A stretch of DNA of 64,000 nucleotides, from positions 67-64,066 of the forward strand of contig JAHFHX010000005.1 in assembly GCA_023246655.1 (NCBI GenBank). The letters run 5' to 3'. The notes beneath the pieces are model-generated. The model was not told the origin of the DNA, did not search any database, and saw only the letters and a list, made by a program, of their open reading frames with translations. Below are positions 758-63,440 of this stretch, piece by piece. Numbering within the stretch: the stretch's first letter is position 1; every line of letters starts with the position of its first letter. Both the position numbers and the translations under genes were made by a program. This DNA is from Candidatus Magasanikiibacteriota bacterium (GTDB taxonomy: Bacteria > Patescibacteriota > Patescibacteriia > Magasanikbacterales > GWA2-37-8).

Positions 758-854
758 CCCTCCCCAACAAGGGGAGGGGCGCGGGGTGGGGTTTCGTTAG
801 TTACAGTGAATGATTAAACCCCTCTCTTTATTTCTCCCCTTGTTGGGGAGAGAT
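758..854. repeat. palindromic repeat family C (ccctcccc..ggggaggggcgcggggtggggtttcg)
   Basis: Same element in inverted orientation inside carA at 59199-59319. Confidence 0.8.
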
Positions 855-15443: not shown

Positions 15444-16736
15444 ATGCCGTCATCGCTCGTGAAAAAATTAATCGTTGTTGGTTGCGTGTTGCTGGGCGCA
15501 GTAGGGGCAACAGTATTTTTGTGCTTGCATATGCAACCTCCAATAATTGCCCGCAATAATCCTGAGCCAAATACGTCGTTCGCTGTATTATCCACCACAA
15601 TTAAAATCCCCATACTTACATTTGCCTCTGTCGAAAATTCTCTCACTACCGTGAGTTCCACGGTTAGCCTCTACCACATTTTTACCAACGATGTTATAGC
15701 TGCCAAGCAAGCTAATTCTTCTACCATTTCGCTCCAATTTTTTGGCGATATGATGCTTGATCGTAATGTTGCAAAAAGTATGGGTAGTCGTGGACTTGAT
15801 TATATTTTTGCCAAGGTGAATTGTCATCCTGAGCCCGGAATGACCAGGTGCGATAATAGAATGTTTGGAGCTGCGGACATTCTCATAGCTAACTTGGAAG
15901 GTCCTTTTGCACCAACCCGCGTGTTCACAACTAAGTCGATTGCCTTCCGTTTTGATCCCAAATGGGCGAAACAGCTCAAACACTACGGCTTCACCGCCTT
16001 TACACTCGCCAATAACCATACCATGGACATGGGTGCGGCGAATAGTAACTTTACGCGCAAAGTGCTTGCCGAAAACGGGATTAATTATTTTGGTCAGGAA
16101 TATAAAGAAAGTCCGAGTTTGACGTGGTATGCCACGTCGACCCCTCCGCACCTCCCCTTCGTAAGGGGAGGTCAATTATCCCCTCCTTACGAAGGAGGGG
16201 ATCAAGGGGTGGTTTCGTCGTCGGTCGCTCTTCCCGCCACCATCGCCTTCATTGGCATTGAAACCGTCGATCATCCTATCAACAAAGCCCAAGTCCTGGC
16301 TGCTCTGAACGAAGCCAAACAAAAAACTCGCTACATAATCGTCAACGTGCACGGTGGCGTAGAATACAAACGTATCTCCACGAAAGCACAACGCACGTTA
16401 TACCACTGGCTCATCGACAACGGCGCCACGGCCGTCATCGGTCACCATCCCCACGTTGTTGAGGAGATGGAAATGTACAAGGGCGCTCCTATTTTTTATT
16501 CCCTCGGTAATTTTATTTTTGATCAGTATTTTTCCAAAGACACCCAAGAAGGGTTGAGTGTCGGATTGACTTTGCAGGACGGAGGAGTAAAATCGGTGTA
16601 TCTCTTTCCGTTTTTTGGGGTTAAGTCGCAGGTACAGCTGATGACGGGGGAACGACGAGATGGATTTTTGAAATGGATGGAAGATAATAGTCGGTTGGAT
16701 GGTCATACGATCACCAACGGAAAAGTCCAACTATAA
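15444..16736 (+). CDS. CapA/PGA_cap family metallophosphatase-like protein
   Basis: N-terminal TM, FFGDMMLDR, ANLEGP, LANNHTMD motifs typical of CapA; palindromic insert in frame at 16141-16203. Confidence 0.7.
   Translation: MPSSLVKKLIVVGCVLLGAVGATVFLCLHMQPPIIARNNPEPNTSFAVLSTTIKIPILTFASVENSLTTVSSTVSLYHIFTNDVIAAKQANSSTISLQFFGDMMLDRNVAKSMGSRGLDYIFAKVNCHPEPGMTRCDNRMFGAADILIANLEGPFAPTRVFTTKSIAFRFDPKWAKQLKHYGFTAFTLANNHTMDMGAANSNFTRKVLAENGINYFGQEYKESPSLTWYATSTPPHLPFVRGGQLSPPYEGGDQGVVSSSVALPATIAFIGIETVDHPINKAQVLAALNEAKQKTRYIIVNVHGGVEYKRISTKAQRTLYHWLIDNGATAVIGHHPHVVEEMEMYKGAPIFYSLGNFIFDQYFSKDTQEGLSVGLTLQDGGVKSVYLFPFFGVKSQVQLMTGERRDGFLKWMEDNSRLDGHTITNGKVQL
16141..16203. repeat. palindromic insert (ctccccttcgtaaggggag / cccctccttacgaaggagggg) in frame in capA-like gene
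   Basis: 63 bp (21 codons) translating to PPHLPFVRGGQLSPPYEGGDQ. Confidence 0.6.
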
Positions 16737-29180: not shown

Positions 29181-29192
29181 ATATGTACGAAT

Positions 29193-36450: not shown

Positions 36451-36513
36451 ATAAACACTTATTCCCTCACCCTCTGTCCCTCTCCCGGCGGGAGAGGGAC
36501 ACTTGTGGCCACT

Positions 36514-38162: not shown

Positions 38163-41100
38163 ATGTACAACGCCAACACCGAAGAACAAAAAATTCTCGA
38201 ATTCTGGAAAGAAAACAAAGCTTTCGAAAAATCTGTCCAAAATCGTCCCGAAGATAAACCCTACGTTTTTTATGATGGTCCACCATTTGCCACCGGTCTC
38301 CCACACTATGGGCATATTTTAGCTTCCGTTATTAAAGATGTGGTGCCGCGTTATTGGACCATGAAAGGCTACCGCGTGCCGCGCAAGTGGATTTGGGATT
38401 GTCACGGGCTCCCGATTGAGAGTTTGATTGAAAAAGAATTGGGTATTTCATCTAAAAAACAGATTGAAAATGAATTTGGCGTAGATAAATTTAACGACGC
38501 CTGCAAATCTAAGGTGCAATTATATGTTGGCGAATGGAAAAAAATGGTAGAGCGTATCGGTCGCTGGGTAGAATATGATAATTCCGCCAAAACTATGGAC
38601 CCAACCTATATGGAATCGGTCTGGTGGGCCCTCAAAACCATTTGGGATAAAGGCCTCATCTACGAAGGTCGGAAAGTCCTTATGTACTGCCCGCACTGCG
38701 AAACGCCCGTCTCCAAGGCAGAGATTGCCATGGATAATAGCTATAAGGATATAACGGAAGAGTCCGTCACCGCGAAGTTTAAATTAAAAAATAAAAATGA
38801 AAAAATAAAAAATATTGAAGGCGATATTTTTATACTCGCGTGGACGACAACGCCGTGGACATTGCCGGGGAATGTGGCGCTGGCGGTTGGGAAGGATATC
38901 TTTTACTCAGTCGTCCAAGCGACTAATGGAGTATATATTGTTGCGTCTGACCGAGTGGAAAAAGTTTTTGCTGGAGAAACAGTTGAAGTCCTGAAAGAAG
39001 TGAGAGGCGTGGATTTGGCTGGCTTAGAATACGAGCCGCTTTTTGACATGCCGGCCATGCAAGAAACTGGCAAGAAGGCATATTATGTCTCAACGGCCAA
39101 TTTTGTCACGACCGCTGATGGTACCGGTGTCGTCCATACGGCCGTGATTTATGGTGAAGACGACTATAATCTTGGCCTCAAACTCGATCTGCCCATGGTA
39201 CCAATGTTAAATGAGAGAGGGGAGTTTAATGAGGTGGCACCAGAATTTCTCCGCGGGGCTTATTTCAAAAAAGCGGAGAAAGAAATTAAGAACGACCTCG
39301 AAAAACGTGGTTTATTATTTTCCCGCGAGCAATTCACGCACTCCTATCCGCATTGTTGGCGCTGCAACACCCAGCTTATTTACAACGCTATTTCCGCATG
39401 GTTCATTAATATTCAAAAAATTAAAACTCGTCTCATTGAACTCAACCAAAATATTAATTGGTACCCAGAGCACTTGAAAGAGGGTCGTTTTCTGAATATC
39501 CTTGAGACAGCACCAGATTGGAATATTTCCCGTAATCGCTACTGGGCGACGCCGTTGCCGTTTTGGAAATGTAGTCGAAAGGAACAAGGAACAAGGAACA
39601 AGGAACAAGGTGATTGCGACAACATTGTATGCATCGGTAGTGTCGCCGAGCTGAAAGAGAAAGCGACCAACTTTTCCGAAGTATTCCCGACCGACAATGT
39701 TGCCGAGCTGGATTTGCACAAACAGTTCATGGATAAAATCAAACTCAAGTGTGACCAATGTGGGGGAATAATGGAGCGCATTCCGGAAGTGATTGATTGT
39801 TGGGTAGAATCTGGTTCGGTGCCATTTGGGCCGTTGCATTACCCGTTTGAGAACAAACAGGAGTTTAAAGACAAATTCCCGGGCCAATATATTGCTGAGT
39901 ATATTAATCAAACTCGCGCCTGGTTTTATTACACGCATGTGATGGCGACGCTTTTGTTTGATTCTAATGCTTTTGAGAATTGCGTTACCACCGGTGAAAT
40001 CCAAAATGACAAAGGCGAAAAATTGTCCAAGTCAAAACGAAATTTTACTGACCCCTGGATTATTATTGAGCAGTATGGCGTTGATGCTCTCCGTTATTAT
40101 TTAATGACCAGCCCAGTGATGCTCGCGGATAATTTGTTATTCAACGACCGCGAAGTCAAAGATATTTATAACAAAGTCGTCAACATGCTCTCGAATGTGC
40201 TGGAGTTTTATCAGATGTACGCAGCACCAACTGTCATCCCGAGCGAGGCTCGCGCCGACGAGGGATCTCTGGCTCACTCGACGACGGACAGAGATTCCTC
40301 ACCCCTGCGACGGGGATTCGGAATGACAAAACATAGCAAACATATTCTCGATCGTTGGATTATGGCTAAACTCCATGAGTTAGTCAAAACCGTCACCGAG
40401 GAAATGGATAAATACAACACGGTAAAAGCCGGCCGGCCAATTAAGGATTTTATTGATGATCTTTCCACGTGGTATCTGCGCCGGAGCCGCGATCGCTTTA
40501 AGGGTAGTGACGAGCTCGATAAACAGCACGCTCTCCACACCCTCCGTGAAGTGCTTCTGGCACTCTCCAAACTCATGGCTCCGTTCACGCCGTTCATTGC
40601 CGAAAAAATCTATCAATCCCTACATTCCTACTCGCCTACCGCCCTACAACCCTCGGTTCACCTAGAAGATTGGCCTCAGTACCACGAAGAGCATCACGTG
40701 CAAGGCGTGCTTGATGAGATGAGTGGTGTCCGTAAAATGGTGGAACTCGGTTTGGCGCTCCGGGCTGAGAATAAAATTAAAGTCCGTCAGCCACTGTATC
40801 AATTAACAGTGAACAATGAACATTTATCACACGAACTCAAGAGTATCATTGCTGATGAGCTAAATGTTAAACAGGTTGATTTCGCTGAATTCGTTGAGGA
40901 GAATCCAGATTGGGTGAGCAAAGAGGACGGTAAGCCCAAAGTGTGGCTCAATATCAAACTTGATGAGCAATTAAAAAAAGAGGGGCTACTCCGCGAAGTG
41001 ATTCGCACTATTAACCAATTGCGCAAAGAGATGAAGTTGACGATTCAGGATCAGGTGGTAATTTTGTATTCAACTAATGATGCGGAGTTACAACAAGTAT

Positions 41101-45841: not shown

Positions 45842-45944
45842 CTGTCATTCCGAGCGAGGCGTTGCAGCCGACGAGGGATCTCTGGCTCAATCAACATTGG
45901 GTGGTCAAGTGAGCCAGAGATCCCTCCTGCGGTCGGGATGACAA
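45842..45944. repeat. family A palindromic element (intergenic ruvA/pyrF)
   Basis: tgtcattccgagcgaggc...gagggatctctggctca / tgagccagagatccctc...gggatgacaa. Confidence 0.8.
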
Positions 45945-48175: not shown

Positions 48176-49057
48176 TTAATAATAAATTTTTGCCCCGCTT
48201 TTATCACGATGATATTTGCCAAACTCAGTAAGTTGGTTAGCAACTGCTTTTGATACCACCGGCCCTTCCATGCACATGCGGATACCAAGCGGGTCAACGC
48301 AACACTGCCCGCAGATGCCGATGCCGCATTTCATAAAGCGTTCAATGCTAATTTCGCATTCGAGATTACGCAGATTACAAAATTCTAAGACTTTAAATTC
48401 CATCAACTCAGGACCACATGTTACAAATAGTAGCTTTTTTGGCATTGTCTGATTACGCAGATACGAGTCGGCAAGTTCAGACAATAAATCCGTCACATAA
48501 CCTTTGTGTCCCGCGCTACCATCATCAGTTGCCAGGTGGAGAGTTACGTTCGGTAATTTTTTTACCCTTTCTTCAAATAATAAATTGTCTTTATCACGTG
48601 CGCCGACGCAAAAGTCGATTGTGACGTTGTTGTCGTGAGCCAGAGATCCCTCGTCGGCCGCGAGGCCTCGCTCGGGATGACAATTGGAGAGTTCTTCTGC
48701 CAAAAAACCCAGTGGTGCTGCGCCGTATCCGCCCGCGACCATTATGTAGTGGGTGTTTGGTTTTACAGAAAAAGCAGTGCCATAGGGGCCGGTAATGCCT
48801 ACTCGGTCACCAATCTTCATTTCAAACAAAGCTTTGGTAAGAGGGCCGCGGTTGAAAATAGTTAAGCCAAATTGTGCGCCACTATCATAACCAATTGAAA
48901 ACGGTTTTTGGTCGAGTCCGGGTACCCAGAGCATGACGAATTGGCCGGGTTTGCTTTTGAGAGAAAAATTAAAATAAAAAGTTTTGACCTGTTCAGTTTC
49001 GTTGACGATTTTTGTGATCGGTAGAAAAATTGGTTGGTCCATATTTGCAAGTGTCAT
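48176..49057 (-). CDS. pyrK: dihydroorotate dehydrogenase electron transfer subunit
   Basis: FAD/NAD-binding fold plus C-terminal 2Fe-2S Cys cluster CGIGICGQCC; start moved to internal Met because the upstream extension lies in a repeat. Confidence 0.8.
   Translation of the reverse strand: MTLANMDQPIFLPITKIVNETEQVKTFYFNFSLKSKPGQFVMLWVPGLDQKPFSIGYDSGAQFGLTIFNRGPLTKALFEMKIGDRVGITGPYGTAFSVKPNTHYIMVAGGYGAAPLGFLAEELSNCHPERGLAADEGSLAHDNNVTIDFCVGARDKDNLLFEERVKKLPNVTLHLATDDGSAGHKGYVTDLLSELADSYLRNQTMPKKLLFVTCGPELMEFKVLEFCNLRNLECEISIERFMKCGIGICGQCCVDPLGIRMCMEGPVVSKAVANQLTEFGKYHRDKSGAKIYY
48635..48683. repeat. family A half-element inserted in pyrK
   Basis: gtgagccagagatccctcgtcggccgcgaggcctcgctcgggatgacaa in frame (DEGSLAHDNN). 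Confidence 0.65.
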
Positions 49058-49148
49058 TGCGAGGAGTGAGGAACGAACGACGCGGCAATCTCCCTGCTTA
49101 AGACATACGTAAATCGGGGAGATTGCTTCGCTTCGCTCGCAATGACAG
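49053..49148. repeat. family A variant element between pyrD stop and pyrK start
   Basis: gtcattgcgaggagtgaggaacgaacgacgcggcaatctccc...gggagattgcttcgcttcgctcgcaatgacag. Confidence 0.7.
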
Positions 49149-50054
49149 TTAGTGTGCGGCACCTCGAATCTCATCGAGCGATTTAATCCCTTCCTCTTTC
49201 ATAATTCGTTCCATTTCGTCAGTCATGGTTTTGAACACCTCAACACCGCCATAATAAATGGCTGATCCAACTCCGATGAGCGTTGCGCCAGCCATAATCA
49301 TCGCTAGGGCATCTTCACCGGTCGTCACGCCTCCGGTGCCAATGATGGGGATTTTGACGGCCTGGAAAATGTCGTAGACGCATTTGAGGGCAATGGGAAA
49401 GAGCGCCGGGCCAGAAATACCTCCTTGTTTGTTGTGTAAAATTGGTCGACGGGCACGCACATCAATGGCCATGCCGCTGACGGTATTCACCGCCGTAATC
49501 GCGTCCGCGCCAGCCGTTTCTGCCGCTTTGGCAATGTCTACAATATTCCAGGCATTGGGGGATAGTTTCATGATCACTGGGACATTGGTCACGGCCTTTA
49601 CTTTTTTGGTAATCATCTCAATCGCCGGGATAGAATAAGCAAACGGGTCGCCAAATTCGCGGCTCACGTTGGGGCAGGAGACATCAATTTCTAAAAAATC
49701 AATCGGCGCGGCACAGATACGCTCCGACACCGCGGCAAATTCGTCTGGGGTTCCAGCGAACACGCTGCCAATAAGTGGTGCCTCACAAACCGTTTTAAAT
49801 AGTTTTAATTCTTCAACCCCAGCCTCAACTCCCGGGTTGGAAAGACCAACCGCGTTAATATAATAATTTGTCGTACCCATTTGCGTAGGGTTGGGGTGCC
49901 CAGTGCGTGGTGTCAGTGAAAGCGATTTCACCGTCACGCCACCCGCTCCATTCTCAATCACATTTTTCATGCTCGCGGCCGTAACGCCCATGATGCCGGA
50001 GGCGAGGACGAGCGGGTTCTCGAAGGATTTATTAAGGAAGGTGGTTGTGAGCAT
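49149..50054 (-). CDS. pyrD: dihydroorotate dehydrogenase catalytic subunit (class 1B)
   Basis: Start moved to internal Met 38 (MLTTTFLNKSFENPLVLASG); FMN-binding blocks. Confidence 0.9.
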   Translation of the reverse strand: MLTTTFLNKSFENPLVLASGIMGVTAASMKNVIENGAGGVTVKSLSLTPRTGHPNPTQMGTTNYYINAVGLSNPGVEAGVEELKLFKTVCEAPLIGSVFAGTPDEFAAVSERICAAPIDFLEIDVSCPNVSREFGDPFAYSIPAIEMITKKVKAVTNVPVIMKLSPNAWNIVDIAKAAETAGADAITAVNTVSGMAIDVRARRPILHNKQGGISGPALFPIALKCVYDIFQAVKIPIIGTGGVTTGEDALAMIMAGATLIGVGSAIYYGGVEVFKTMTDEMERIMKEEGIKSLDEIRGAAH

Positions 50055-50668: not shown

Positions 50669-50683
50669 AACGATCGAAAAAAA

Positions 50684-50790
50684 TCCTAAGTACCTAATTT
50701 CTAATATCTAATATAATGCCCAATGCCAAATTTGACATTTTGATTTAGGAATTTTATTAGAAATTAGATATTAGATGAATTAGAAATTAT
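50684..50790. repeat. inverted-repeat element family D
   Basis: Paralog of 5223-5330 and 19625-19732. Confidence 0.75.
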
Positions 50791-51974: not shown

Positions 51975-52431
51975 TAATTTTCAATTTTTAATTTACAATT
52001 TTCAATGAATGATCAATTTCCAATTCAGCTCTTTTTACCGTCTAACGTCATTAAAATTTTTTGAAAAATCAACGTTAACTCCTGAGCTTCTTTCCAATTT
52101 ATTCGCAATTCCTCTTGTCTATTTGCGTCGGTGGTCGCTAACATTCTTAACCAATGTTTTGTCTCCTGAACTTCCTTTTTACAAATATAAATTTTATTTC
52201 TAAAATCTTTTGGTGATGAGGCGCCATTAGCCTCCATATAATTTGCTCCAACACTCGTAGCCGACCGTAGTATCTGGGAAACAATAGAACGATTAAATTC
52301 ATTAAGTGTCAAACTCTTACAAAATTTAATAATAATCTCACCAAAGCGAGCCGTCCTATCTTCCAAATCATATTTTGAAAATTGAGTCATTGCAAATTGA
52401 TTGAAAATTGTAAATTAAAAAATTGAAAATT
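51975..52431. mobile_element. IR-flanked cassette carrying a four-helix-bundle ORF
   Basis: About 33-bp IRs aattttcaatttttaatttacaattttcaat / attgaaaattgtaaattaaaaaattgaaaatt. Confidence 0.7.
52025..52390 (-). CDS. four helix bundle protein (TIGR02436 family)
   Basis: FPK.E...L..Q..RSATSVGANYMEANG signature. Confidence 0.8.
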   Translation of the reverse strand: MTQFSKYDLEDRTARFGEIIIKFCKSLTLNEFNRSIVSQILRSATSVGANYMEANGASSPKDFRNKIYICKKEVQETKHWLRMLATTDANRQEELRINWKEAQELTLIFQKILMTLDGKKS

Positions 52432-52896
52432 TCAAAGGTTATAATCCTTAATCTCTTCCTGTTCAAAAATTTTCTCGCAATATTTGCAACTCAACTTAAT
52501 CACCGTGCCGTAGCGTTTTACAGAAAACAAGGTCGTCATGCGCTCAAAGTTGGTAATGCACTTGGGGTTGGGGCATACTACTACGCGTTCGATTGTTTGC
52601 GGAATTTGGACTTTAAATTTTTTGGTGACTTTATAATTTTTAATAATATTAATTGATGCCTCGGGAGCGAGCAAAGCAACCTCGTTGGCTTCTTCTGGCG
52701 TGAGTTCACGCCCCTCCACTTTGATTAAATCTTTGTGCCCCATGGCGCGGCTGGGGAGGTTAAGACCAACCGTGACAACCTTCTTGTGATCAGGGAGACG
52801 TAAAACGCGAATAATTTTTAACGCTCGGCCAGCGGTAATGTGGTCAATCACGGTGCCGTCTTTGATGGCGGAGACTAGTAATTCTTGTGGAGTCAT
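52432..52896 (-). CDS. pyrI: aspartate carbamoyltransferase regulatory subunit
   Basis: Allosteric domain plus zinc domain CPNPKC...CKYCE. Confidence 0.9.
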   Translation of the reverse strand: MTPQELLVSAIKDGTVIDHITAGRALKIIRVLRLPDHKKVVTVGLNLPSRAMGHKDLIKVEGRELTPEEANEVALLAPEASINIIKNYKVTKKFKVQIPQTIERVVVCPNPKCITNFERMTTLFSVKRYGTVIKLSCKYCEKIFEQEEIKDYNL

Positions 52897-52935: not shown

Positions 52936-53138
52936 TGTCATCCCGAGCGCACGAGGGATCTCTGGCTCACACATTTGTCATTTCGAGCGGAGTGACGCCT
53001 CGCGGCGGAACGAAGTCGAGAAATCTCGTCGTATCGTTGCGAGATTCATCCACTACGCTCCTTCGTCGTCGCTTCGGTCGGAATGACAAGTAAGCCAGAG
53101 ATCCCTCGTCGGCTGCGAAGCCTCGCTCGGGATGACAG
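52936..53138. repeat. tandem family A elements between pyrB stop and pyrI start
   Basis: Two adjacent copies of gtcatcccgagcg...gagggatctctggctca ... gggatgacag. Confidence 0.8.
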
Positions 53139-53144
53139 TGTATG

Positions 53145-54062
53145 TTAGAATTTTCCTAAAACCAAACCAAACAGCGCCTCGCGAACATACAACCCATTCT
53201 CAGCTTCTTGAAAATAATAGGCATACGGCGTGGCATCAACGTCGGGGGCAACTTCGTTCACGCGCGGCAGGGGATGAAGGATTTTTAAATTTGATTTTAC
53301 ACCCTTGAGCATAGCGGCGGTGAGTACATACGCATTTTTTACTTTCTCATACTCCGCTGGATCACCAAAACGCTCTGCCTGAATGCGGGTCATGTAGAGA
53401 ATATCAACTTTCGGCAGTATCGGTTCTAATTCGGAATGTAGAGAAAATTTAATGCGACTTAATTTAAATTCATCCAAAATATATTCCGGCATCTGGAGCA
53501 TTTCTGGCGCGACACAGTAAACCCGCGAATTAAAGTGGCACAGTGCCTGTGCAAGCGAGTGTACCGTGCGCCCATATTTTAAGTCACCAACAAACGCAAT
53601 GGATAAATTTTCTAATTTTTTTTGCGTTTCCTGAATGCTCAATAAATCCAGAAAAGTTTGGCTGGGGTGTTGATTAGCGCCATCGCCGCCATTGATGATG
53701 GGTTTTTCGCTCGCTTCAGCTGCTCGGCGTGCTGCTCCTTCCAGCGGATGGCGCATCGCAATAACATCCGCATATTGCGAGATAATTTTAATTGAATCAT
53801 AGAGTGTCTCGCCTTTTTTAGTGGAGGTAACATTTGGATCAGCGAAACCAATAACCTTACCTCCTAGACGTTGCATAGCGGTTTCAAAAGAAAGCCGGGT
53901 TCTAGTGGACGGCTCAAAAAAACAACTCCCGAGGACATAGCCGTCGAGGAGTTTTGGCTGCGGTTTCTTTTTGAGCGCGCTCGCTACTTTTAGAACATGA
54001 AGAATTTCTTCTTTGGTGAATTCTTTGATGGAGAGGATGTCGCGATTTTTAAATGTGAGCAT
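53145..54062 (-). CDS. pyrB: aspartate carbamoyltransferase catalytic subunit
   Basis: STRTR carbamoyl-phosphate motif, HPLP. Confidence 0.95.
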
Positions 54063-54083: not shown

Positions 54084-54196
54084 CCCCCCTCGAGGGGGGC
54101 TCACGGGGGGTGTAAGACTCTTGTGTGGCCGTTTCGTCGTCCAACCGTTAGCGACGCAAAGGTCTCACACCCCCACTACCCCCCTCGAGGGGGGAA
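54084..54196. repeat. family B palindromic element overlapping the carB 3' end
   Basis: cccccctcgaggggggc...ggtgtaag...tctcacaccccc...cccctcgagggggg; supplies the last about 15 codons and stop of carB. Confidence 0.75.
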
Positions 54197-57100
54197 TTTA
54201 CAAATTCCTGCCACGAGAGAGGCACTCCGTCCTTTTTTGCTCTATTCGTCAAACAATCCAGAAACAACATTGCCGTTTGCAGGTTGGTAATAATAGGCAC
54301 GTGATGGTTAATAGCCATGCGGCGAATTTGGTAACCATCAGTCGTCACTTTCTTGCCCTGGCCACTTGGAATATTTATTACCACATCCACCTCGCGCTCC
54401 GCAATTGCTGTCAACACATTTGGCTCACCGCCCTCGCGTGCTTTATATAAAAAAGCCGAGGCAATACCGTGGCGTGACAGAAAATCGTGCGTGCCTTCAG
54501 TAGCATAAATGTTCCACCCCTCTTCGTCAAGCTGTTTAATAGCCGGCAGAAGTTCTAATTTTTTATCGCCACCAATGGAGAGTAAAATATTTTTGCCCTT
54601 AACCGTTTGTTCAGTCGCAAGCCAGGACATAAAGAACGCTTCTTGGTAGTTGCGCCCCAGGCACGCCACCTCGCCAGTCGAGGCCATCTCCACACTGGCA
54701 ATCGGGTCCGACCCTTTGAGTCGGTTATAAGAGAATTGCGGGGTTTTTACCCCCACATAGTCCAAATCAAGGGTAAAATACTGGGCTGGCACGTGACGAC
54801 CCAGCATCACTTGCGTGGCAATCTCAATAAAATTATGGCCGGTCACTTTGGAAACAAACGGAAAAGAGCGTGAAGCACGTAAATTACATTCAATAACTTT
54901 AACCTCATTATTTTTGGCCAGCAGTTGAAAGTTAAAAGGCCCGGTAATGTTAAGCGCCGCCACAATCTGGCGCGCGATGTGTTTTGCTTGGCGAATTGTT
55001 TCGAGGTAGAGCCGCTGTGGTGGAAGTACAATGGTCGCGTCTCCCGAATGTACGCCCGCATTTTCAATATGTTCCGAAATTGCCTTAATCACAATTTCTC
55101 CATCCTGCGCCACGCCATCCACCTCCAATTCTTTTGCTCCAGTAATAAATTTTGACATTACCACCGGGTGCTCGGGCGACACAATCGCCGCTTCGCCCAA
55201 ATATTTCTCCAATTCTTCGTCACTCCACACCACATTCATGGCTGTGCCGGAAAGAATATATGAAGGGCGGATGATAAGAGGATACTGAACATCACTCGCA
55301 AATTTTTTAGCGGCCGAGAGGTTAGTCACTTCTTGCCAGGTTGGCTGGTCTATTTTAAGTTTATTCAAAAGTGCGGAAAATTTTTGACGATTTTCAGCGA
55401 TGTCGATTGATTGGGGGGAGGTGCCGAGGATGAGCATCGTCGGTTTACTGTCATCCCGACGACGAAGGAGGGATCTCTGGCTTACCGATTCAACTGTCAT
55501 CCCGAGCGAGGCCTCGCGGCCGACGAGGGATCTTTGTCCGTCGATTGGTGAGCCAGAGATTCCTTGTCGCTGCGGCGCTCCTCGGAATGACAATTGAGGG
55601 TATGCCTTCGCGAGTGGAAGTGCCAAATTATTCGGAATTTGCCCACCCACCGACACAATGATCCCCTTGGGATTTTCAAAATCCGCAATGTCGCGCACTC
55701 TTTCCAAAGTTAATTCTTCAAAATACAAACGATCTGATTCGTCATAATCAGTGGAGACCGTTTCCGGGTTAGAGTTGATAATAATGGGGGATTCATCTAG
55801 TTTGCGCAGTGTCCGGGCGGTGTTGACGGCGCACCAATCAAATTCTACGGATGATCCGATACAGTACGGGCCAGAGCCAAGGACGATAATGGATTTTTTT
55901 GTACTCGGTTTTATATCATGTTCGGTGCCATGATACGTTGTGTAAAGATAATTAGTTTCGGCAGAAAATTCTCCAGCCAAAGTATCAATTTGTTTTATCA
56001 CCGGCGTAATTTTATTTTTAATGCGCAGTTCTCGGATTTTGTCTTCGGTTGAGTTGATTAATTTGGCGATGGTTTTGTCGGAGAAGCCGAATTGTTTGGC
56101 GGTGCGGAACAACTCCCCCCTCGAGGGGGGTAGTGGGGGTGTGAGTCCTTTGCGTCGCGGATCATTCGCCAACCGTGAGCCACGCAGGGGTCTTACACCC
56201 CCCATGAGGCCCCCCTCGAGGGGGGATTTGCGAACGCTGTGTTCAACATCCACAATCGCCTTCACATGCTCCAAAAACCATTTATCAATCTTCGACATCT
56301 CATGAATTTTCTCCACACTCATCCCACCACGCATCGCCTTATAAATTGCAAACAAACGCCGATCGGTTGGGTGTTCAATTTCCGCCTCGGGATCAGGAAT
56401 ATCATGCGGATAGTCACTCAAGCCATTGGCGCCAATGTTTAACATGCGCACGGCTTTTTGGAGCGCCTCCGGAAATGATCGCCCAATTGCCATCACCTCA
56501 CCAACACTTTTCATTTCCGATCCAATGGTCCGTTCCGCGATTTTAAATTTCGTTAAATCCCACCGCGGAATTTTCACCACGAGATAGTCGAGCGCCGGTT
56601 CAAAACAGGCGGACGTTTTTTTCGTCACGGAATTTCGGAGTTCATGCAATTGTTTCCCCAGCGCTAGTTTCGCAGCGACGAACGCAAGGGGATACCCAGT
56701 GGCTTTAGATGCGAGCGCACTCGACCGGCTCAACCGCGCGTTCATCTCAATCACGCGGTAATCGCCGTTCTTAGGGTTCAGCGCATACTGAATATTACAT
56801 TCGCCGACAATTCCCATTGCTCGCGCTACCTTGATAGCTACCTCGCGCAGCATGTGATACTCCTCATTCGTCAGCGTCTGCGACGGCGCGACCACAATGC
56901 TCTCGCCCGTATGAATACCCATGGGGTCAAAATTTTCCATGTTACACACCGTAATGGCGGTGTCATTACTATCGCGCACAATTTCGTATTCAATTTCTTT
57001 CCACCCGCCCAAATATTCTTCAATCAAAATTTGGGGAGCACCATGCAGTGCTTCCCCGGCGCGTTCGCGGAGTTCAGCCTCATTCTCAATTTTTCCTGAT

Positions 57101-57627
57101 CCTAATCCGCCGAGCGAAAAACCCGAGCGCATCATAATCGGGTATTTTATTTTTTTTGCTGCCTCAAGGGCTTCCTCCACCGTCGTCACCGCAAAACTCA
57201 CCGGAGTCTTAATCCCAATCTTAGTCAAAGCCCTCTTGAAGAAATCCCGATCCTCAGTAATGCGTATCGCTTCCACTGGAGTCCCGAGAACCACAACCCC
57301 ATTTTTTTTTAACACCCCTTTTGCCTCCAACGCGAGCCCCAAATTCAGCGCCGTCTGCCCGCCAAAACCCAAGAGGATCCCGTCCGGTTTTTCTTTTTTA
57401 ATAATTTGCGAAACGGTTTCTAAATTGAGTGGCTGTAAATAAACCGTGTCTGCCATCCCCGGGTCCGTTTGCACCGTGGCAATATTGGGGTTCACGAGTA
57501 CGGTAAAAATTCCCTCTTCTTTAAGAGCTTTAATGGCCTGTGAGCCGGAGTAATCGAATTCGCCAGCTTGGCCAATGCGGAGACCGCCGGAGCCGAGGAG
57601 GAGGATTTTTTTAATTTGTTTGGGCAT
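54148..57627 (-). CDS. carB: carbamoyl-phosphate synthase large subunit
   Basis: Two ATP-grasp halves, oligomerisation and MGS-like domains; two extra internal inserts. Confidence 0.95.
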   Translation of the reverse strand: MPKQIKKILLLGSGGLRIGQAGEFDYSGSQAIKALKEEGIFTVLVNPNIATVQTDPGMADTVYLQPLNLETVSQIIKKEKPDGILLGFGGQTALNLGLALEAKGVLKKNGVVVLGTPVEAIRITEDRDFFKRALTKIGIKTPVSFAVTTVEEALEAAKKIKYPIMMRSGFSLGGLGSGKIENEAELRERAGEALHGAPQILIEEYLGGWKEIEYEIVRDSNDTAITVCNMENFDPMGIHTGESIVVAPSQTLTNEEYHMLREVAIKVARAMGIVGECNIQYALNPKNGDYRVIEMNARLSRSSALASKATGYPLAFVAAKLALGKQLHELRNSVTKKTSACFEPALDYLVVKIPRWDLTKFKIAERTIGSEMKSVGEVMAIGRSFPEALQKAVRMLNIGANGLSDYPHDIPDPEAEIEHPTDRRLFAIYKAMRGGMSVEKIHEMSKIDKWFLEHVKAIVDVEHSVRKSPLEGGLMGGVRPLRGSRLANDPRRKGLTPPLPPSRGELFRTAKQFGFSDKTIAKLINSTEDKIRELRIKNKITPVIKQIDTLAGEFSAETNYLYTTYHGTEHDIKPSTKKSIIVLGSGPYCIGSSVEFDWCAVNTARTLRKLDESPIIINSNPETVSTDYDESDRLYFEELTLERVRDIADFENPKGIIVSVGGQIPNNLALPLAKAYPQLSFRGAPQRQGISGSPIDGQRSLVGREASLGMTVESVSQRSLLRRRDDSKPTMLILGTSPQSIDIAENRQKFSALLNKLKIDQPTWQEVTNLSAAKKFASDVQYPLIIRPSYILSGTAMNVVWSDEELEKYLGEAAIVSPEHPVVMSKFITGAKELEVDGVAQDGEIVIKAISEHIENAGVHSGDATIVLPPQRLYLETIRQAKHIARQIVAALNITGPFNFQLLAKNNEVKVIECNLRASRSFPFVSKVTGHNFIEIATQVMLGRHVPAQYFTLDLDYVGVKTPQFSYNRLKGSDPIASVEMASTGEVACLGRNYQEAFFMSWLATEQTVKGKNILLSIGGDKKLELLPAIKQLDEEGWNIYATEGTHDFLSRHGIASAFLYKAREGGEPNVLTAIAEREVDVVINIPSGQGKKVTTDGYQIRRMAINHHVPIITNLQTAMLFLDCLTNRAKKDGVPLSWQEFVNSPLEGGSGGVRPLRR
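55448..55593. repeat. family A element inserted in frame in carB
   Basis: Translates to ...GQRSLVGREASLGMTVESVSQRSLLRRRDDSK... inside carB. Confidence 0.75.
56114..56226. repeat. family B element inserted in frame in carB
   Basis: Translates to PLEGGLMGGVRPLRGSRLANDPRRKGLTPPLPPSRGE. Confidence 0.75.
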
Positions 57628-57636
57628 AGTCTTTAA

Positions 57637-57685
57637 CTGTCATCCCGAGCGAGGCTTCGCAGCCGACGAGGGATCTCTGTCTCAG
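57637..57685. repeat. family A half-element immediately upstream of carB start
   Basis: ctgtcatcccgagcgaggcttcgcagccgacgagggatctctgtctcag. Confidence 0.7.
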
Positions 57686-57804
57686 TTTTTACTTTATCTT
57701 AGCCAAATTTATTAAATTTCACCCTGTCGTCACTTGCTTTCTTCTTCTTCTGCTATTATGCCTTGTTCCTCTAGCGCCACGGTAGCGCGAGAAAGGAGGA
57801 CAAA

Positions 57805-58032
57805 ATGGTGGCAGACATAGTAAAACCGTTACTGACTACTCTGATGGTAGTGTTCGGTTGGGGAGGGTGGTTTCTAACCTTTCAGGTTTTCGTGTCATGG
57901 GCCCTGTCATGGGCAATGGGCGGGGGGCGGGTCACGAACGCCGAGATGGCGGAGTGGGTGGGATGGTCGGTGCTCTTCACCGCCGTCCCCTGGTTGATTC
58001 TGCGCCGGCTTGACCGTCGGCCGCGGAACTGA
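57805..58032 (+). CDS. small GC-rich two-TM membrane protein with strong Shine-Dalgarno sequence
   Basis: aaggagg 5 nt upstream of ATG; 75 aa, Trp/Gly-rich hydrophobic; two downstream hairpin terminators (58042-58089, 58098-58164). Confidence 0.4.
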   Translation: MVADIVKPLLTTLMVVFGWGGWFLTFQVFVSWALSWAMGGGRVTNAEMAEWVGWSVLFTAVPWLILRRLDRRPRN

Positions 58033-58041
58033 CCCCCCAAG

Positions 58042-58164
58042 CCTCGCCGCCACATCTCCGGCAATTCGGGAGACTGTGGCGGCGAGGCCAAGCGAAAAAC
58101 CAACCTACCAATCTCACCATGTTTTCAAATCCTTGAAGATATGGTGAGTAGGTTGGTTTTTTGT
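58042..58164 (+). terminator. tandem terminator hairpins after small ORF
   Basis: 13-bp stem cctcgccgccaca...tgtggcggcgagg, then accaacctac...gtaggttggt followed by tttttt. Confidence 0.5.
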
Positions 58165-58185
58165 TTTAAAAGGACACTCGCCATT

Positions 58186-58352
58186 TGTCATTCCGACCGC
58201 AGGAGGAATCTCTGGCTCACTCAACGGTGTCGACATCGGTCGTTGGTTGAGCCAGAGATCCCTCGTCGCCGCGAGGCTCGCTCGGGATGACAGATCGCCA
58301 TAACCATTTAGCCATGTCAACTAGATCCTTCGCTCCGACTCAGGATGACACC
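58186..58352. repeat. family A elements at carA 3' end
   Basis: tgtcattccgaccgc...gagccagagatccctcgtcgcc...gggatgacag plus half copy ctagatccttcgctccgactcaggatgaca. Confidence 0.7.
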
Positions 58353-59737
58353 AAGTTGTAGAATTTCTGAAATAAAAATTTCGTATCCGTCGGCCCCGGG
58401 CTCGCTTCCGGGTGAAACTGCACCGAAAAAAACGGCAGCGTCTCGTGCGCCACGCCTTCTACCGAATTATCATTCAAATTTCTAAAATTCACATACCAAC
58501 CCTTCGGGAGTGTTTTCTCATCCACCGCATACCCATGGTTTTGGCTGGTAATGACACACTTGCCCGAAAAGGAGCTACGCTCCCTCGGGCCAAGTTTCGT
58601 CCCTGCCCCGAGAGGGCCGCGCCCTTTTTCGGGGGCAAGTTCCATACATGGCTGATTCTGCCCGCGGTGGCCAAAGGGGAGTTTGTACGTTTTGGCGCCA
58701 GCGGCGAGCGCCATCAGTTGCGACCCCAAACAAATTCCCATAATTGGTTTTGGTTTTTTTCCGCCCGAAGCGGATCCGCCTTGGGCGGAGAGTGCCTTCT
58801 TTAAAATCGTAATCGTCTCCGTACACTGCGCCGGGTCGCCCGGGCCGTTGGAGAGGAAGAGGCCGTCGAATTTATCATTCGTGTAATCGTAATTGTAGGG
58901 CACGCGTTCAATAGTCCAGGGGAATTGTTGGAGGGAGCGGATGATGTTTTCTTTCATGCCGCAGTCCACGGCGATAATTGTTTTTGTCCGGCCAAGTCCC
59001 CCCTGTGAGGGGGGTAGGGGGGTGTGAGCCGTCGGGGACAATAAACTCGCATCCTTTGATAATTGGCGACGCACCGGTCTTACACCCCCCGGTGAGCCCC
59101 CCTCGAGGGGGGAGTTTCCGTGATACGTTTTTGGACGAGTGATTGAGACTTCGGCGACGAGATTGCGGGTATTGGGGTCGACAAAAGTGAGACCGCGAAC
59201 GAAACCCCTCTCTGTATCTCTCCCCTTATAGGAGAGAGAGTGATTGAGAGAAACGGCGATAGTTCCTTCGTTTACGGTTTTCCCTCCCCTATAAGGGGAG
59301 GGGCGCGGGGTGGGGTTTCGGTCACCGCTCACCATCGCCCCGAGCATCACCCCACTCTCCCTAATAATTTTCGTCAACGCCCGCGTATCCACGCCCATGA
59401 TAATCGGCACCTGTTCGTCCTTGAGCCACTCCAACAGCGACCGCAAGGCGGTAGCATGGCTATATTTCTCACACGCCTCACTTACCACCACTCCAGAAAG
59501 ATGAATTTTTTTGGATTCCCAGCGTCCAGGGCCAGGCACGCCGTAATTACCAATCAACGGATACGTAAACGTTAAAATTTGCCCATTATACGATGGGTCA
59601 GTCAGCGTTTCCACGTAGCCGGTCATGCCAGTGTTAAAGACGACCTCGCCATGAAAAACACCCTTCTGATGGGTGGGGGAGAGGCCAGGGAAGGATTGGC
59701 CGTTTTTTAGGAGGAGTTGGGAGGGGTTGAATTTCAT
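58340..59737 (-). CDS. carA: carbamoyl-phosphate synthase small subunit (glutamine amidotransferase)
   Basis: CarA N-domain plus class I GATase (GICLGSQ, HPE); about 85 aa longer than typical because of three palindromic inserts. Confidence 0.9.
   Translation of the reverse strand: MKFNPSQLLLKNGQSFPGLSPTHQKGVFHGEVVFNTGMTGYVETLTDPSYNGQILTFTYPLIGNYGVPGPGRWESKKIHLSGVVVSEACEKYSHATALRSLLEWLKDEQVPIIMGVDTRALTKIIRESGVMLGAMVSGDRNPTPRPSPYRGGKTVNEGTIAVSLNHSLSYKGRDTERGFVRGLTFVDPNTRNLVAEVSITRPKTYHGNSPLEGGSPGGVRPVRRQLSKDASLLSPTAHTPLPPSQGGLGRTKTIIAVDCGMKENIIRSLQQFPWTIERVPYNYDYTNDKFDGLFLSNGPGDPAQCTETITILKKALSAQGGSASGGKKPKPIMGICLGSQLMALAAGAKTYKLPFGHRGQNQPCMELAPEKGRGPLGAGTKLGPRERSSFSGKCVITSQNHGYAVDEKTLPKGWYVNFRNLNDNSVEGVAHETLPFFSVQFHPEASPGPTDTKFLFQKFYNLVSS
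58582..58616. repeat. small palindromic insert in carA (ccctcggg...ccccgagaggg)
   Basis: Encodes extra GPRERSSFSG-like segment. Confidence 0.45.
58997..59112. repeat. family B element in frame in carA
   Basis: tcccccctgtgagggggg...ggtgtgag...tcttacacccccc...cccctcgagggggg. Confidence 0.75.
59199..59319. repeat. family C element in frame in carA
   Basis: cgaaacccctctct...ccctcccctataaggggaggggcgcggggtggggtttcg; inverted copy of 758-854. Confidence 0.8.
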
Positions 59738-59807
59738 AAGGATATCCGCCAGAGGCGGGATTGTCAGCCAGACGGACTCTCTGTGCGAACAGCTCGTCTC
59801 GTCGCTG

Positions 59808-59840
59808 ACAAAAAAATACCACCCATTGTCGGGTGGCCGT
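59808..59840 (-). terminator. rho-independent terminator downstream of gatB
   Basis: ccacccgacaatgggtgg hairpin followed by T-run on the minus strand. Confidence 0.6.
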
Positions 59841-59938
59841 TAGTTTGTCTCCTGGTCAGTTGTATCGTTGGGATGGATTTTCATATCTAGCCCAGTATAA
59901 CAAACAGGAGTTAGGTAATCAAGTAGTACTATCCACAG

Positions 59939-61642
59939 TTATTTTAACCGTTCCCGCAGCAATTTCTCTACTACCACCGGATCCGCGCTCCCCTCCGTCG
60001 CCTTCATCGCCATGCCAATTAAAAATTTAATGATTGGGTCTTTGCCAGCTTTGAATTGAGCTACCTGAGCCGGGTAATTTTTTATTACTTCATCCACCAC
60101 GGCACCAATTTTACCAACATCGCTAACCTGCCCGTAGCCTTTTTCTTCCATAATATGCGTTGGGTCAAGATTAACACCGGAGTCGAGCATCGCGCCGAGA
60201 ATTTTTTGGGCGTTTGTTGAGTTTACGCGATTAGCATATACCAGGGCAATGAGTTCTGCAAAATTTTCTGGTTGAATTTTAAGAATTCGGATGTCAATTG
60301 TGCGTTCTTTCATGGCACCCATGAGTTTAGTGGTGAGCCACCCACCGGCAAGGCGGGCGAGTTCTTGGGCGGGTTTGCAAATCGGCGGACGAGCCCTCAC
60401 CCTGCCCTCTCCCGTGGGGAGAGGGTGTGATTGTCCGCCTCTCCCGGCGGGAGAGGTCGGGTGAGGGGCAATCGTACACTCATGCGTTTCGGGGAGGCTG
60501 TGGAGCCACTCGGACAGCTCGCTCATCACATTCTCCGCAAAATCTCCCCATACCTTGTCGGCAGTGAGCATAAACGCGTCAGCATAGGAGAAACCGTATT
60601 CTTTGTGGAAACGTTCTCGTCGTGTCTGCGGAAGTTCAGGAATGGTCACGCTCGCCGCAATCTCAAGGGGATGAAAAGCAGGAATATCTGGCTCCGGAAA
60701 ATAGCGATAGTCCGCCGAGGTTTCTTTGGAACGTTGGCGTACAGTCGTTTGTGTCGGGTCATCCCAGCCACGCGTCTCCTGGGCCCAACTCTCACCTTTT
60801 TCCAGCATCTCAGTCTGTCGCTTAATTTCAAACTCAATGGCTTTTTCCACCGCGCGGAACGAGTTAATATTTTTTACCTCAACTTTAGAATTTAATTTGC
60901 ATCCCGGCTTCGCCACAATCATTCCTTTTTCCTTGCTCCATGTTCCTTCCGTCTGCAAGGACACGTTCGCCTCACACCGCATCTGTCCTTTTTCCATATC
61001 GGCATCAGAGACACCAAGATAACGGAAAATGAGTTGTAATTCCTGACAGTACGTCTTGGCTTCTAACGCACTCTCAACGTCCGGCTCGGAAACAATTTCG
61101 ACGAGCGGTACTCCGGCACGATTGAAGTCGATCAACGTGCAATTGTCATTCTGAGAGAGCTTCGCAGCGACCGAAGAATCTAGTTGTCGCGAACTAGATC
61201 CTTCGCTGCGCTCAGGATGACAAATAGCATGGGCTAATTTAGCCGTATCCTCTTCCAAATGCACGCGCGTAATGCCGATGCGCGCCGTCCCTCGCGGATT
61301 TTTATCCGTCAACGTCAACTCAATTGCCCCATGTTCACCAATGGGTTCATCATACTGCGAAATCTGGTAACCTTTGGGCAAATCAGGATAAAAATAATGC
61401 TTACGATCAAATTTACTGTTCTCATTTATGCTGCAACCAAGCGCCCGCGCAATTTTTACGGTATCAATAATTGCCTGCTTATTTGGCACGGGCAATGTCC
61501 CCGGGTGCGCCAAACACACCTCGCATATGTTTACATTAGGAGTCTGGATGAACGGGTCATTCTTGCACGAACAAAACATTTTACTCGCTGTGTTGAGTTC
61601 AACGTGGATTTCAAGACCAATTATTGGTATATACTTGAGCAT
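59939..61642 (-). CDS. gatB: Asp/Glu-tRNA amidotransferase subunit B
   Basis: GatB N-terminal catalytic blocks and C-terminal YqeY domain; two in-frame palindromic inserts. Confidence 0.9.
   Translation of the reverse strand: MLKYIPIIGLEIHVELNTASKMFCSCKNDPFIQTPNVNICEVCLAHPGTLPVPNKQAIIDTVKIARALGCSINENSKFDRKHYFYPDLPKGYQISQYDEPIGEHGAIELTLTDKNPRGTARIGITRVHLEEDTAKLAHAICHPERSEGSSSRQLDSSVAAKLSQNDNCTLIDFNRAGVPLVEIVSEPDVESALEAKTYCQELQLIFRYLGVSDADMEKGQMRCEANVSLQTEGTWSKEKGMIVAKPGCKLNSKVEVKNINSFRAVEKAIEFEIKRQTEMLEKGESWAQETRGWDDPTQTTVRQRSKETSADYRYFPEPDIPAFHPLEIAASVTIPELPQTRRERFHKEYGFSYADAFMLTADKVWGDFAENVMSELSEWLHSLPETHECTIAPHPTSPAGRGGQSHPLPTGEGRVRARPPICKPAQELARLAGGWLTTKLMGAMKERTIDIRILKIQPENFAELIALVYANRVNSTNAQKILGAMLDSGVNLDPTHIMEEKGYGQVSDVGKIGAVVDEVIKNYPAQVAQFKAGKDPIIKFLIGMAMKATEGSADPVVVEKLLRERLK
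60394..60468. repeat. palindromic element family C'' in frame in gatB
   Basis: ccctcaccctgccctctcccgtggggagagggtg...ctctcccggcgggagaggtcgggtgagggg; 75 bp (25 codons); related to 36464-36500. Confidence 0.7.
61143..61223. repeat. family A variant element in frame in gatB
   Basis: ttgtcattctgagagagcttcgcagcgaccgaagaatctag...ctagatccttcgctgcgctcaggatgacaa; 81 bp (27 codons). Confidence 0.75.
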
Positions 61643-61654: not shown

Positions 61655-61770
61655 ATCTGCGAACATACGAACGGCTACGAACGTACGAACTACGAATAAT
61701 AATTAACGATGCCATTTTTGTTCGTAATTCGCATGTTCGTACTAAATTCGTACGTTCGTACATAATTACG
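61655..61770. repeat. repeat family E (tacgaa/ttcgta palindromic)
   Basis: cgaacatacgaacggctacgaacgtacgaactacgaa ... ttcgtaattcgcatgttcgtactaaattcgtacgttcgtac. Confidence 0.7.
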
Positions 61771-63355: not shown

Positions 63356-63440
63356 AACTATGTACGAAATTACGAAATGTACGAAAGATACGAACTATAA
63401 AATTTCGTACCTTTCGTATTATTCGTATGTTCGCACATAA
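63356..63440. repeat. repeat family E overlapping folA 3' end
   Basis: tgtacgaaattacgaaatgtacgaaagatacgaa ... ttcgtattattcgtatgttcgcac; encodes folA C-terminal TYVRTYE. Confidence 0.65.

Follow-up and report, generated by a model that had tools for sequence, protein, structure and literature searches.

Palindromic repeats that sit in frame inside coding sequences, the 'protein-coding palindromes', have so far been treated as a peculiarity of Rickettsia. There the Rickettsia palindromic elements (RPEs; Ogata et al. 2000, 2002) are unusually frequent, with 44 in-frame insertions in R. conorii according to a 2024 review (PMC10969869). [quoted passage not shown] Here we analyzed 64,000 nucleotides of contig JAHFHX010000005.1 (assembly GCA_023246655.1), hereafter the window, from a Candidatus Magasanikiibacteriota bacterium of the candidate phyla radiation (CPR, Patescibacteria). 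In these 64 kb we found at least 13 palindromic inserts that leave the frame of the host gene intact: three in carB, five in carA, two in gatB and the remainder in ileS, pyrK and a PGA_cap gene. The same repeat families are also present between genes.

Results

Palindromic repeats within and between genes

An earlier note on this DNA had placed three palindrome families, A, B and C, both inside and between genes, and counts far above those in shuffled sequences bear this out. The family A core GAGGGATCTCTGGCTCA, with up to two mismatches, matches 11 times in the window (0.01 expected from shuffles), the family A terminus TGTCATYCYGA 18 times (0.15 expected) and the family B terminus CCCCCCTCGAGGGGGG five times (0 expected), while family C is represented by two copies, 758-853 and 59197-59323, that are 95% identical. 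Further palindrome families were found in gatB (D), carA (E and F) and the PGA_cap gene (G). All 12 tested copies form long hairpins that are far better than those of shuffled sequences (z from -2.7 to -9.6), and genic and intergenic copies share 80-100% identity. The repeat families are therefore real, and chance is excluded. No Rfam family reached its gathering threshold anywhere in the window, which means that the elements do not belong to a curated RNA family. A scan for GC islands that might reveal additional inserts was too noisy to use.

The finding is centered on the pyrimidine-synthesis cluster on the minus strand, where pyrK, pyrD, pyrC, pyrI and pyrF lie upstream. The gene identities proposed in the earlier note (carB, carA, gatB, ileS and pyrK) were correct, and its 'capA-like' gene is the PGA_cap open reading frame (ORF) at 15444-16736. 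In each host gene a single frame runs through each of the 13 inserts, with homology on both sides, and all inserts in the window keep the frame and contain no stops. If the frame were irrelevant, the probability that at least 11 independent inserts would all be multiples of three is ~(1/3)^11.

In carB (54148-57627, minus strand), two internal copies and a third one that supplies the C-terminus and stop were found, as had been proposed. The first is a family B element at 56115..56225 (minus; CarB residues ~468-505, peptide SPLEGGLMGGVRPLRGS...PPLPPSRGE) with exact 16-nt palindromic termini and a hairpin z of -6.7, and it coincides with a gap at 467-504 in the alignment to human CPS1. The second, at 55449..55592 (minus; residues ~677-726, 144 nt or 48 codons), corresponds to a gap at 675-730 in the same alignment. 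It is an in-frame family A copy in which a second, solo A arm (55495-55541) is nested in the center of an A doublet, which makes the insert a composite. The peptide KSPLEGGLMGGVRPLR would span an insert junction in CarB. The third element, of family B, spans the carB 3' end (54084..54194, minus; z = -9.6), and the gene takes from it its last ~15 codons (SPLEGGSGGVRPLRR) as well as its stop (54148-54150); the CarB C-termini of two related contigs, L001 and L003 (described below), stop directly after LSWQEF.

The carA gene (58340-59737, minus) had been credited with three inserts and an excess of about 85 residues. It has four internal inserts (33, 42, 10 and 22 residues; 107 in total) and a half-element that supplies the last two codons and the stop; with 465 residues against a family median of 353, CarA is ~110 residues too long. 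The family C element (59197..59323, minus; residues ~139-181) is 95% identical to the intergenic copy 758-796/816-853 and is missing from 117 of 118 homologs. A family B element follows at 58997..59112 (minus; residues ~209-247); at this site the homolog P0003 has a homologous insert, P0004 and P0005 have a different element and P0002 has none. The small palindrome F (TCCGCCC..GGCGGA), an inverted repeat at 58755..58795 (minus), encodes GGSASGGKKP (residues 320-329); it has an intergenic copy at 16850 and another copy in L001, and the carA insert is common only to P0003. Palindrome E (58562..58640, minus; z = -3.4) encodes PEKGRGPLGAGTKLGPRERSSF, residues 369-390, and is common to L003/P0004 only. 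Gaps relative to solved CarA orthologs were located at 136-182, 211-246 and 369-393. Finally, a solo A2-type arm (TGTCATCCTGAGTCGGAGCGAAGGATC; 58319..58350, minus) abuts the 3' end and contributes two Ser codons and the TGA stop, whereas CarA of relatives ends in ...LV, without SS.

As described before, gatB (59939-61642, minus) carries two in-frame inserts. Site 1 is a family A2 doublet (61144..61222, minus; residues ~141-166, CHPERSEGSSSRQLDSSVAAKLSQND; z = -5.0) and site 2 is palindrome D (60383..60470, minus; residues ~391-420; z = -5.8), which has a related partial copy at 36462-36513. The alignment to a solved GatB ortholog has gaps near 137-160 and 374-432. The database protein P0241, from the window's own contig, has 524 residues and covers 92% of the 567-residue ORF at 100% identity; the deposited gatB gene call therefore differs from the longest ORF.

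The single insert described for ileS (38163-41225, plus) is a family A doublet at 40232..40328 (plus; VIPSEARADEGSLAHSTTDRDSSPLRRGFGMT), matched by a gap near 690-728 relative to a solved IleRS ortholog; a peptide across its junction would include AAPTVIPSEARADEGSLAH. The pyrK gene (48176-49174) does contain an in-frame element, which is only a single family A arm of 16 codons (48635..48682, minus; CHPERGLAADEGSLAH). In the PGA_cap gene, the twin-hairpin palindrome G lies in frame at 16151..16200 (plus); for this insert, alignment to solved structures gave too weak a match to confirm lineage specificity. The same gene contains an in-frame family A remnant of 25 nt (15822-15846; TGTCATCCTGAGCCCGGAATGAC, translated CHPEPGMT) that consists of two A termini with almost nothing between them. 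It could stem from internal deletion of a copy or be the footprint of an excision.

Several copies lie between genes. The best preserved, which serves as the reference, is the family A doublet between ruvA and pyrF (45843..45943; z = -7.1). A second doublet, between pyrI and pyrB (52936..53137; pyrB at 53145-54062, minus), has another A-type doublet nested in its central loop, and a third lies downstream of carA (58186..58292; z = -6.1). A solo family A arm (57638..57690) is located 10 nt upstream of the carB start codon, and the intergenic family C copy (758..853) separates a glyoxalase gene from recA. The carB-carA spacer (57690-58186), between the solo arm and the doublet downstream of carA, contains a GC-rich 75-codon ORF (57806-58033, plus) for a predicted small membrane protein, followed by a strong terminator-like hairpin; in L001 and L003 this spacer contains different small ORFs.

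Distribution of the inserts among relatives

The window CarA is matched best by a 100% identical NCBI protein; its next relatives are proteins from Candidatus Magasanikbacteria and other Patescibacteria. For comparison we used two contigs in synteny with the window, both from other studies: L001, from a Lake Baikal metagenome-assembled genome (MAG; GCA_009694865.1), and L003 (GCA_964533715.1). CarA of L001, the nearest relative (356 residues; 85% identical over aligned columns), contains none of the four internal inserts, and CarA proteins of other close relatives contain subsets of the window inserts or different elements at the same sites. CarB gives a similar picture: the element at site 1 is of family B in the window and of family A in L001, and L003 has a third palindrome there; an A element fills site 3 (the 55449-55592 insert) in the window and in L003, and this site is empty in L001; and L001 and L003 share an insert site that is empty in the window. 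The prediction that the inserts are lineage-specific was borne out for CarA, CarB and GatB, for which the alignments to orthologs break exactly at the inserts, and presence and absence vary accordingly across relatives (0 of 4 CarA inserts in the nearest relative, the family C insert in 1 of 118 CarA sequences, GatB site 1 in 13 of 46). In-frame elements, at the same or other sites, were also found in independent assemblies (the SICD Baikal MAG, CAZHNI, JACRFW, CAYHFR and a Logan contig). These assemblies, and nearest relatives without the inserts, exclude both conserved ancestral sequence and assembly error, the two findings by which the earlier note would have fallen.

The age of the inserts differs. 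Palindrome D at GatB site 2 occurs in the window only, among 46 relatives. The insert at GatB site 1 is found in 13 of the 46, patchily, at the same site and in the same frame. Its DNA, compared in five genomes, has the same right-arm subtype, covers the same 99-nt region in four of the five and keeps its hairpin potential; the proteins that carry it are only ~70-84% identical and share the conserved peptide HPERSEGS...DSSAxPQND. Judged from these alignments, the site-1 element is orthologous across lineages. Orthology at this level of divergence indicates that some inserts are old and stably carried and that others are recent. The element is missing from L001, the window's nearest relative, which implies a near-precise loss or a more complex history. 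Divergence of the flanking loop residues prevented us from defining exact empty and filled junctions at the DNA level among the window, L001 and L003.

Position of the inserts in a CarA model

We built an AlphaFold2 model of the window CarA from 118 homologs. The mean predicted local distance difference test score (pLDDT) was 82.5, with values above 90 in the core, and the model superimposed on E. coli CarA with a TM-score of 0.85 (target-normalized). The columns of the catalytic Cys, His and Glu are invariant, and all three residues are present in the window CarA. Three inserts were modeled as coil between regular secondary-structure elements, with pLDDT below 50: residues 153-171 (family C), 216-239 (family B) and 371-389 (palindrome E, in a loop between two strands). 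The fourth, palindrome F (residues 320-329), has a pLDDT of ~87 and includes a short helical turn. The model supports loop tolerance, with the predicted CarA fold kept and three of the four inserts in coil. The surface-loop tolerance in core enzymes proposed earlier thus gains support for one protein, at the level of prediction.

Family A is a doublet of hairpins

A gapped pattern for one family A arm, run against species-representative genomes, gave more than 110 stretches among the matches listed. These were mostly from Magasanikbacteria and Magasanikbacteria-like MAGs; other hosts among the matches listed were Rikenellaceae/Alistipes, Roseospira navarrensis, Acidobacteriota, Gemmatimonadales and more. 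A sample of 928 kb, composed of the window and loci, contained 162 complete family A elements, 45 of them in long open frames. The sizes of the 162 cluster mainly at 75-125 nt, with a second peak at 350-420 nt.

The elements have terminal inverted repeats, TGTCATYCYGA...TCRGRATGACA, and the overall architecture TGTCATYCYGA - variable small hairpin - GAGGRATCT - variable central hairpin - AGATYCCTC - variable small hairpin - TCRGRATGACA, in which each arm forms its own hairpin (TGTCATCCCGAGCGAGGC...GACGAGGGATCT). In an alignment of 72 elements, the discriminating pair of the left arm is CG in 37, UA in 32 and UG in 3 sequences, and that of the right arm is CG in 39 and UA in 31 sequences; mispairs are essentially absent. 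At the same columns, the long-range terminal pairing predicted for a long palindrome is unpaired in 30-31 sequences, and the central stem shows 26-30 double changes per pair. The within-arm covariation and the failed long-range pairs rule out a simple long palindrome: family A is an inverted doublet of REP-like hairpins, like a REPIN. Solo arms occur besides the doublets. None of 160 family A elements has a target-site duplication of 4 nt or more, and duplications of 2-3 nt are not enriched over shuffled pairings. In the flanks, Y precedes TGTCAT and R follows ATGACA, and the terminal inverted repeats extend no further. Nesting into the central loop recurs (55449-55592 and 52936-53137 in the window, and loci L044, L047 and L107).

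We counted an element as genic if an open frame of at least 60 codons lies on each side of it. By this definition, 42 of the 139 complete family A elements (30%) in loci from Magasanikbacteria-like and other Patescibacteria lie in an open frame, and none of the 13 from Rikenellaceae/Alistipes. Random 95-nt windows in the same CPR loci are genic in 51% of cases by the same criterion, so that the depletion of genic copies is only mild, an unusual situation for bacterial repeats. Genic copies show a bias in their entry frame: 32 of the 42 have T|GTC ATC CCG... (VIPSE...). This bias arises in part because the frames are unequally open (43%, 29% and 17% of strand-copies) and because of the TGA in ATGACA. 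We also considered a skew in the length of genic copies modulo three as evidence of translation and rejected it as circular, because genic copies are themselves defined by an open frame.

Longer family A elements carry a GIY-YIG ORF

Among the elements with family A ends, seven are 365-415 nt long, and each of the seven holds one ORF of ~97 residues from the same GIY-YIG subfamily and nothing else. All six ORFs scanned were above the Pfam threshold for PF01541 (GIY-YIG). One of the seven elements is in L001, and its ends have exactly the GAGGGATCTCTGGCTCA core of the window. The protein consists of the catalytic domain and a short tail, with no recognizable DNA-binding domain, and its closest solved relative is the uncharacterized UPF0213 protein 1ZG2 (E = 4e-4, a weak match). 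The family comprises at least 2785 clusters at 90% identity, carries generic annotation only and often occurs on very short contigs.

Four members from other phyla were inspected, and each lies among cognate repeats. In two of the four the repeat termini differ in step with the lineage: a Burkholderiaceae MAG has GTCGTTCCGA/TCGGGACGAC, and a high-GC contig has GTCACCCCGA/TCGGGGTGGC. These associations point to a nuclease-repeat partnership and are no proof that the nuclease moves the repeats. The GIY-YIG gene of locus L114 is located between two elements, not inside one. In the Burkholderiaceae MAG (L115, 1-1127), the gene stands amid a tandem-like array with cognate ~100-nt elements every ~100 nt, which resembles clusters of the REPIN type or of bacterial interspersed mosaic elements. 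In the literature searched, we found nothing relevant on GIY-YIG proteins with REP-, REPIN- or MITE-like repeats or palindromes, nor on such elements or MITEs in CPR or Patescibacteria.

Other repeats and genes in the window

A Pfam map of ~50 ORFs of the window shows ordinary housekeeping genes, for example rpoB, rpoC, recA, ftsK, ruvA and ruvC. A gene of the PF05635/TIGR02436 'four helix bundle / 23S rRNA intervening sequence (IVS) protein' family (52025-52390, minus) is bracketed (51975-52440) by AT-rich inverted repeats of ~30 nt, TTTTCAATTTTTAATTTACAATTTTCAAT ... ATTGAAAATTGTAAATTAAAAAATTGAAAATT. An inverted pair of the same words without an ORF is found at 38065-38152, just upstream of ileS, and the gene with its repeats has the look of a second mini-element with a single ORF, the ORF-less pair that of its miniature derivative. 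Another PF05635 gene is located at 30985-31377. Two small PDDEXK_3 (PF13366) nuclease genes are also associated with repeats: one (18694-19107) lies between direct repeats at 18648-18685 and 19097-19134, and the other (29281-29691) adjoins, in the region 29183-29691, a periodic repeat of ACGAA words that recurs at 61655-61696 and 63360-63401. Other AT-rich periodic repeats are found at 5222-5331, 19618-19722 and 50678-50788. Two GC-rich islands (22272-22814 and 34931-36206; 65-68% GC against ~44%) begin with the same motif of ~33 nt, GCACAAGGTGAGATGCC..., and the larger one (~1.2 kb) contains overlapping ORFs on both strands with no match in Pfam or Rfam.

Two observations concern the related loci. 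In L119 (11544-11707; the gene runs off the locus), IleRS is called with 1199 residues and has a His_Phos_1 (phosphoglycerate-mutase-like) domain between tRNA-synt_1 segments, which suggests that this core enzyme has taken up an entire domain. Many MAGs labeled 'uncultured Gammaproteobacteria' (TPA assemblies, for example CAZHNI, CAZXML, CAYIHE and CAZBWU), as well as a MAG titled 'Candidatus Udaeobacter' (37% GC), have Magasanikbacteria-like synteny, proteins and repeats, and their taxonomic labels are probably wrong; the loci concerned are L003, L009, L012, L017 and others, and L010, L023 and L100.

Discussion

We consider it likely that the inserts are selfish palindromic repeats filtered by frame and by loop position, the longer, GIY-YIG-bearing form of family A being the likely parent or mobilizer. 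Several GC-rich, non-coding palindromic mobile repeat families of ~50-150 nt would have spread through this Magasanikbacteria genome and would land between as well as inside genes. Within genes, selection would retain only those copies that are a multiple of three in length, contain no in-frame stop and occupy a tolerant loop, a linker or the C-terminus. Transcription and translation of the host gene would include the retained copies, giving disordered loops rich in Gly, Pro, Arg and Ser that would leave the enzyme fold unchanged. A site once opened may stay a soft spot at which further elements nest or replace the first one, which would give orthologs with different elements at the same position. 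The GIY-YIG nuclease may act on the hairpin arms, producing no target-site duplication. We infer both the filter by selection and a driving role of the nuclease, and for the latter the choice between driver and cargo is about evenly balanced.

Several points weigh against this explanation. In the 64-kb window, no GIY-YIG, RAYT or transposase gene was found by a regular-expression scan and the Pfam map of ~50 ORFs, and no ORF-bearing relatives of families B to G were found. GIY-YIG enzymes are known for nuclease activity, not as transposases, and the ORF could be cargo of the central loop. Translation of the inserts is read from the preservation of the frame only. On the structural side there is a single predicted model, of a single protein, in which a low pLDDT is no proof of surface exposure. 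The loci in the 928-kb survey sample are an arbitrary choice from among the matches listed. Nor are the elements enriched for open frames (17-43% per frame, against 24% in shuffles and 33% in random genomic windows). Since they are not notably stop-free, there is no sign of evolved coding-friendliness, and filtered survival suffices.

A wider proposal, which we put forward tentatively and would not yet bet on, is that family A and its relatives may form an undescribed class of mobile element. Its autonomous unit of ~400 nt, a minimal ~97-residue GIY-YIG nuclease between two hairpin arms, would spawn REPIN-like doublets across many phyla (Patescibacteria, Bacteroidota, Proteobacteria, Acidobacteriota and others), which would enter CPR genes at a near-random rate and be carried for long as translated loops.

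The mobilizer may instead be something other than the GIY-YIG protein, namely a RAYT or IS200-type HUH transposase encoded elsewhere, or host replication and recombination acting on the hairpins, with the ORF as cargo. The central loop is a favored landing site for other elements, the L114 gene is placed between elements, unrelated repeats also bracket other small ORFs of the window (PF05635 and PDDEXK_3), and the lack of target-site duplications also fits HUH enzymes. Yet the same GIY-YIG subfamily, and nothing else, is present in each of the seven long A-type elements, termini and nuclease lineage co-vary in the Burkholderiaceae MAG and another high-GC contig, no RAYT or transposase was found in the window or beside the elements, and the family A termini lack the GTAG-type head of REPs. 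We regard this alternative as less likely than not, though worth keeping in mind.

That the inserts have been domesticated, with loops or mRNA hairpins useful as interaction surfaces or for tuning translation or mRNA stability, is improbable as a general explanation and possible for particular inserts, notably the one at GatB site 1. That insert has been kept in 13 of 46 relatives with a conserved peptide and hairpin potential in proteins of ~70-84% identity, and the VIPSE... frame prevails in 32 of 42 genic copies. However, this frame bias stems partly from the terminal TGA and from which frames are open, the closest relatives manage without the inserts, elements of several families have entered the same sites in several frames, and disorder is predicted for the inserts, whose sequences recur identically between genes.

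Removal of the inserts before or during protein synthesis, by intron-like excision, translational bypass or intein-like splicing, is very improbable. The elements do form very stable hairpins, the window contains PF05635 '23S rRNA IVS protein' genes, and CPR genomes are known for intervening sequences in their rRNA genes. But removal would require neither a kept frame nor the absence of stops, and every insert in the window has both; at least 11 independent inserts keep the frame in genes with homology on both sides, which makes removal before translation unlikely. Furthermore, there is no Rfam intron match, and the inserts are 10-50 residues long, without intein motifs and with varied end residues. 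Artefacts of assembly or binning, or ancestral variable loops that resemble repeats, are scarcely credible: the source is a MAG and palindromic repeats confuse assemblers, but independent assemblies contain in-frame elements, genic and intergenic copies are 80-100% identical and the nearest relative lacks the inserts.

With frame-filtered selfish repeats as the preferred explanation, this second, independent and locally denser case, in CPR bacteria, suggests that in-frame palindromes are a general outcome where hairpin repeats meet small gene-dense genomes and weak selection. It helps to explain why proteins of CPR bacteria are often oddly long and hard to align, and it bears on annotation and structure prediction. 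The inserts are natural experiments in which loops of CarAB, GatCAB and IleRS appear to tolerate 10-50 extra residues. If confirmed, the GIY-YIG link would be a nuclease-repeat partnership parallel to that of RAYTs and REPINs, and a very large family whose sole annotation is 'GIY-YIG nuclease family protein' would be assigned a role. If the new class of elements is real, it would steadily supply the core proteome of the smallest genomes with new loop sequence.

Comparison with known systems

The earlier note had likened the inserts to RPEs, and the likeness is apt: they are palindromic, lie in frame in unrelated genes, are missing in orthologs and are located in loops in the CarA model. As RPEs are described in the 2024 review (PMC10969869), both are palindromes of ~100-150 bp that occur between genes and in frame in unrelated housekeeping genes, the extra loops are thought to be compatible with the fold (translation being deduced here from the frame), and there is no known transposase. 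The differences are that the host belongs to CPR/Patescibacteria, that the local density is higher (64 kb hold at least 13 inserts here, whereas the review gives 44 for the entire R. conorii genome), that families pile up and nest at the same sites and that one family is tied to a GIY-YIG ORF-bearing relative. As far as can be told, the relation is one of analogy, not of membership in RPE-1 to RPE-10; with a Patescibacteria host, common descent with the Rickettsia elements is unlikely.

The term 'MITE-like', also used in the earlier note, fits only in part. Like bacterial MITEs (Coxiella QMITE1, PMC5896051; enterobacterial RU/ERIC, PMC2759123; Correia elements), the elements are small and non-autonomous, have terminal inverted repeats and no ORF, and some form in-frame ORF fusions. 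Unlike MITEs, they have no target-site duplication and no transposase-bearing parent insertion sequence was found; the candidate partner is a GIY-YIG protein rather than a transposase, the organization is REPIN-like, and family A is far more frequent inside essential genes. The ORF of the longer elements shares the PF01541 catalytic domain with free-standing GIY-YIG homing endonucleases and with minimal GIY-YIG proteins of the UPF0213/YhbQ type (PDB 1ZG2). It differs in that it does not lie in an intron or intein; the patchy same-site insert in GatB is reminiscent of homing, whereas family A copies occur at many unrelated sites.

The REP/REPIN-RAYT system (Bertels & Rainey 2011, PMC3116915; Nunvar 2010, PMC2817692) resembles family A in having a hairpin as the unit and an inverted doublet with a spacer as the mobile form, in the occurrence of singlets, in the lack of target-site duplications and in a small protein gene flanked by the same repeats. 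In family A, however, the flanked gene encodes a GIY-YIG nuclease of ~97 residues, not an HUH/Y1 RAYT, and the termini begin with TGTCAT... instead of the GTAG-type head. Family A also crosses phyla, and about 30% of its copies are located inside genes rather than being extragenic.

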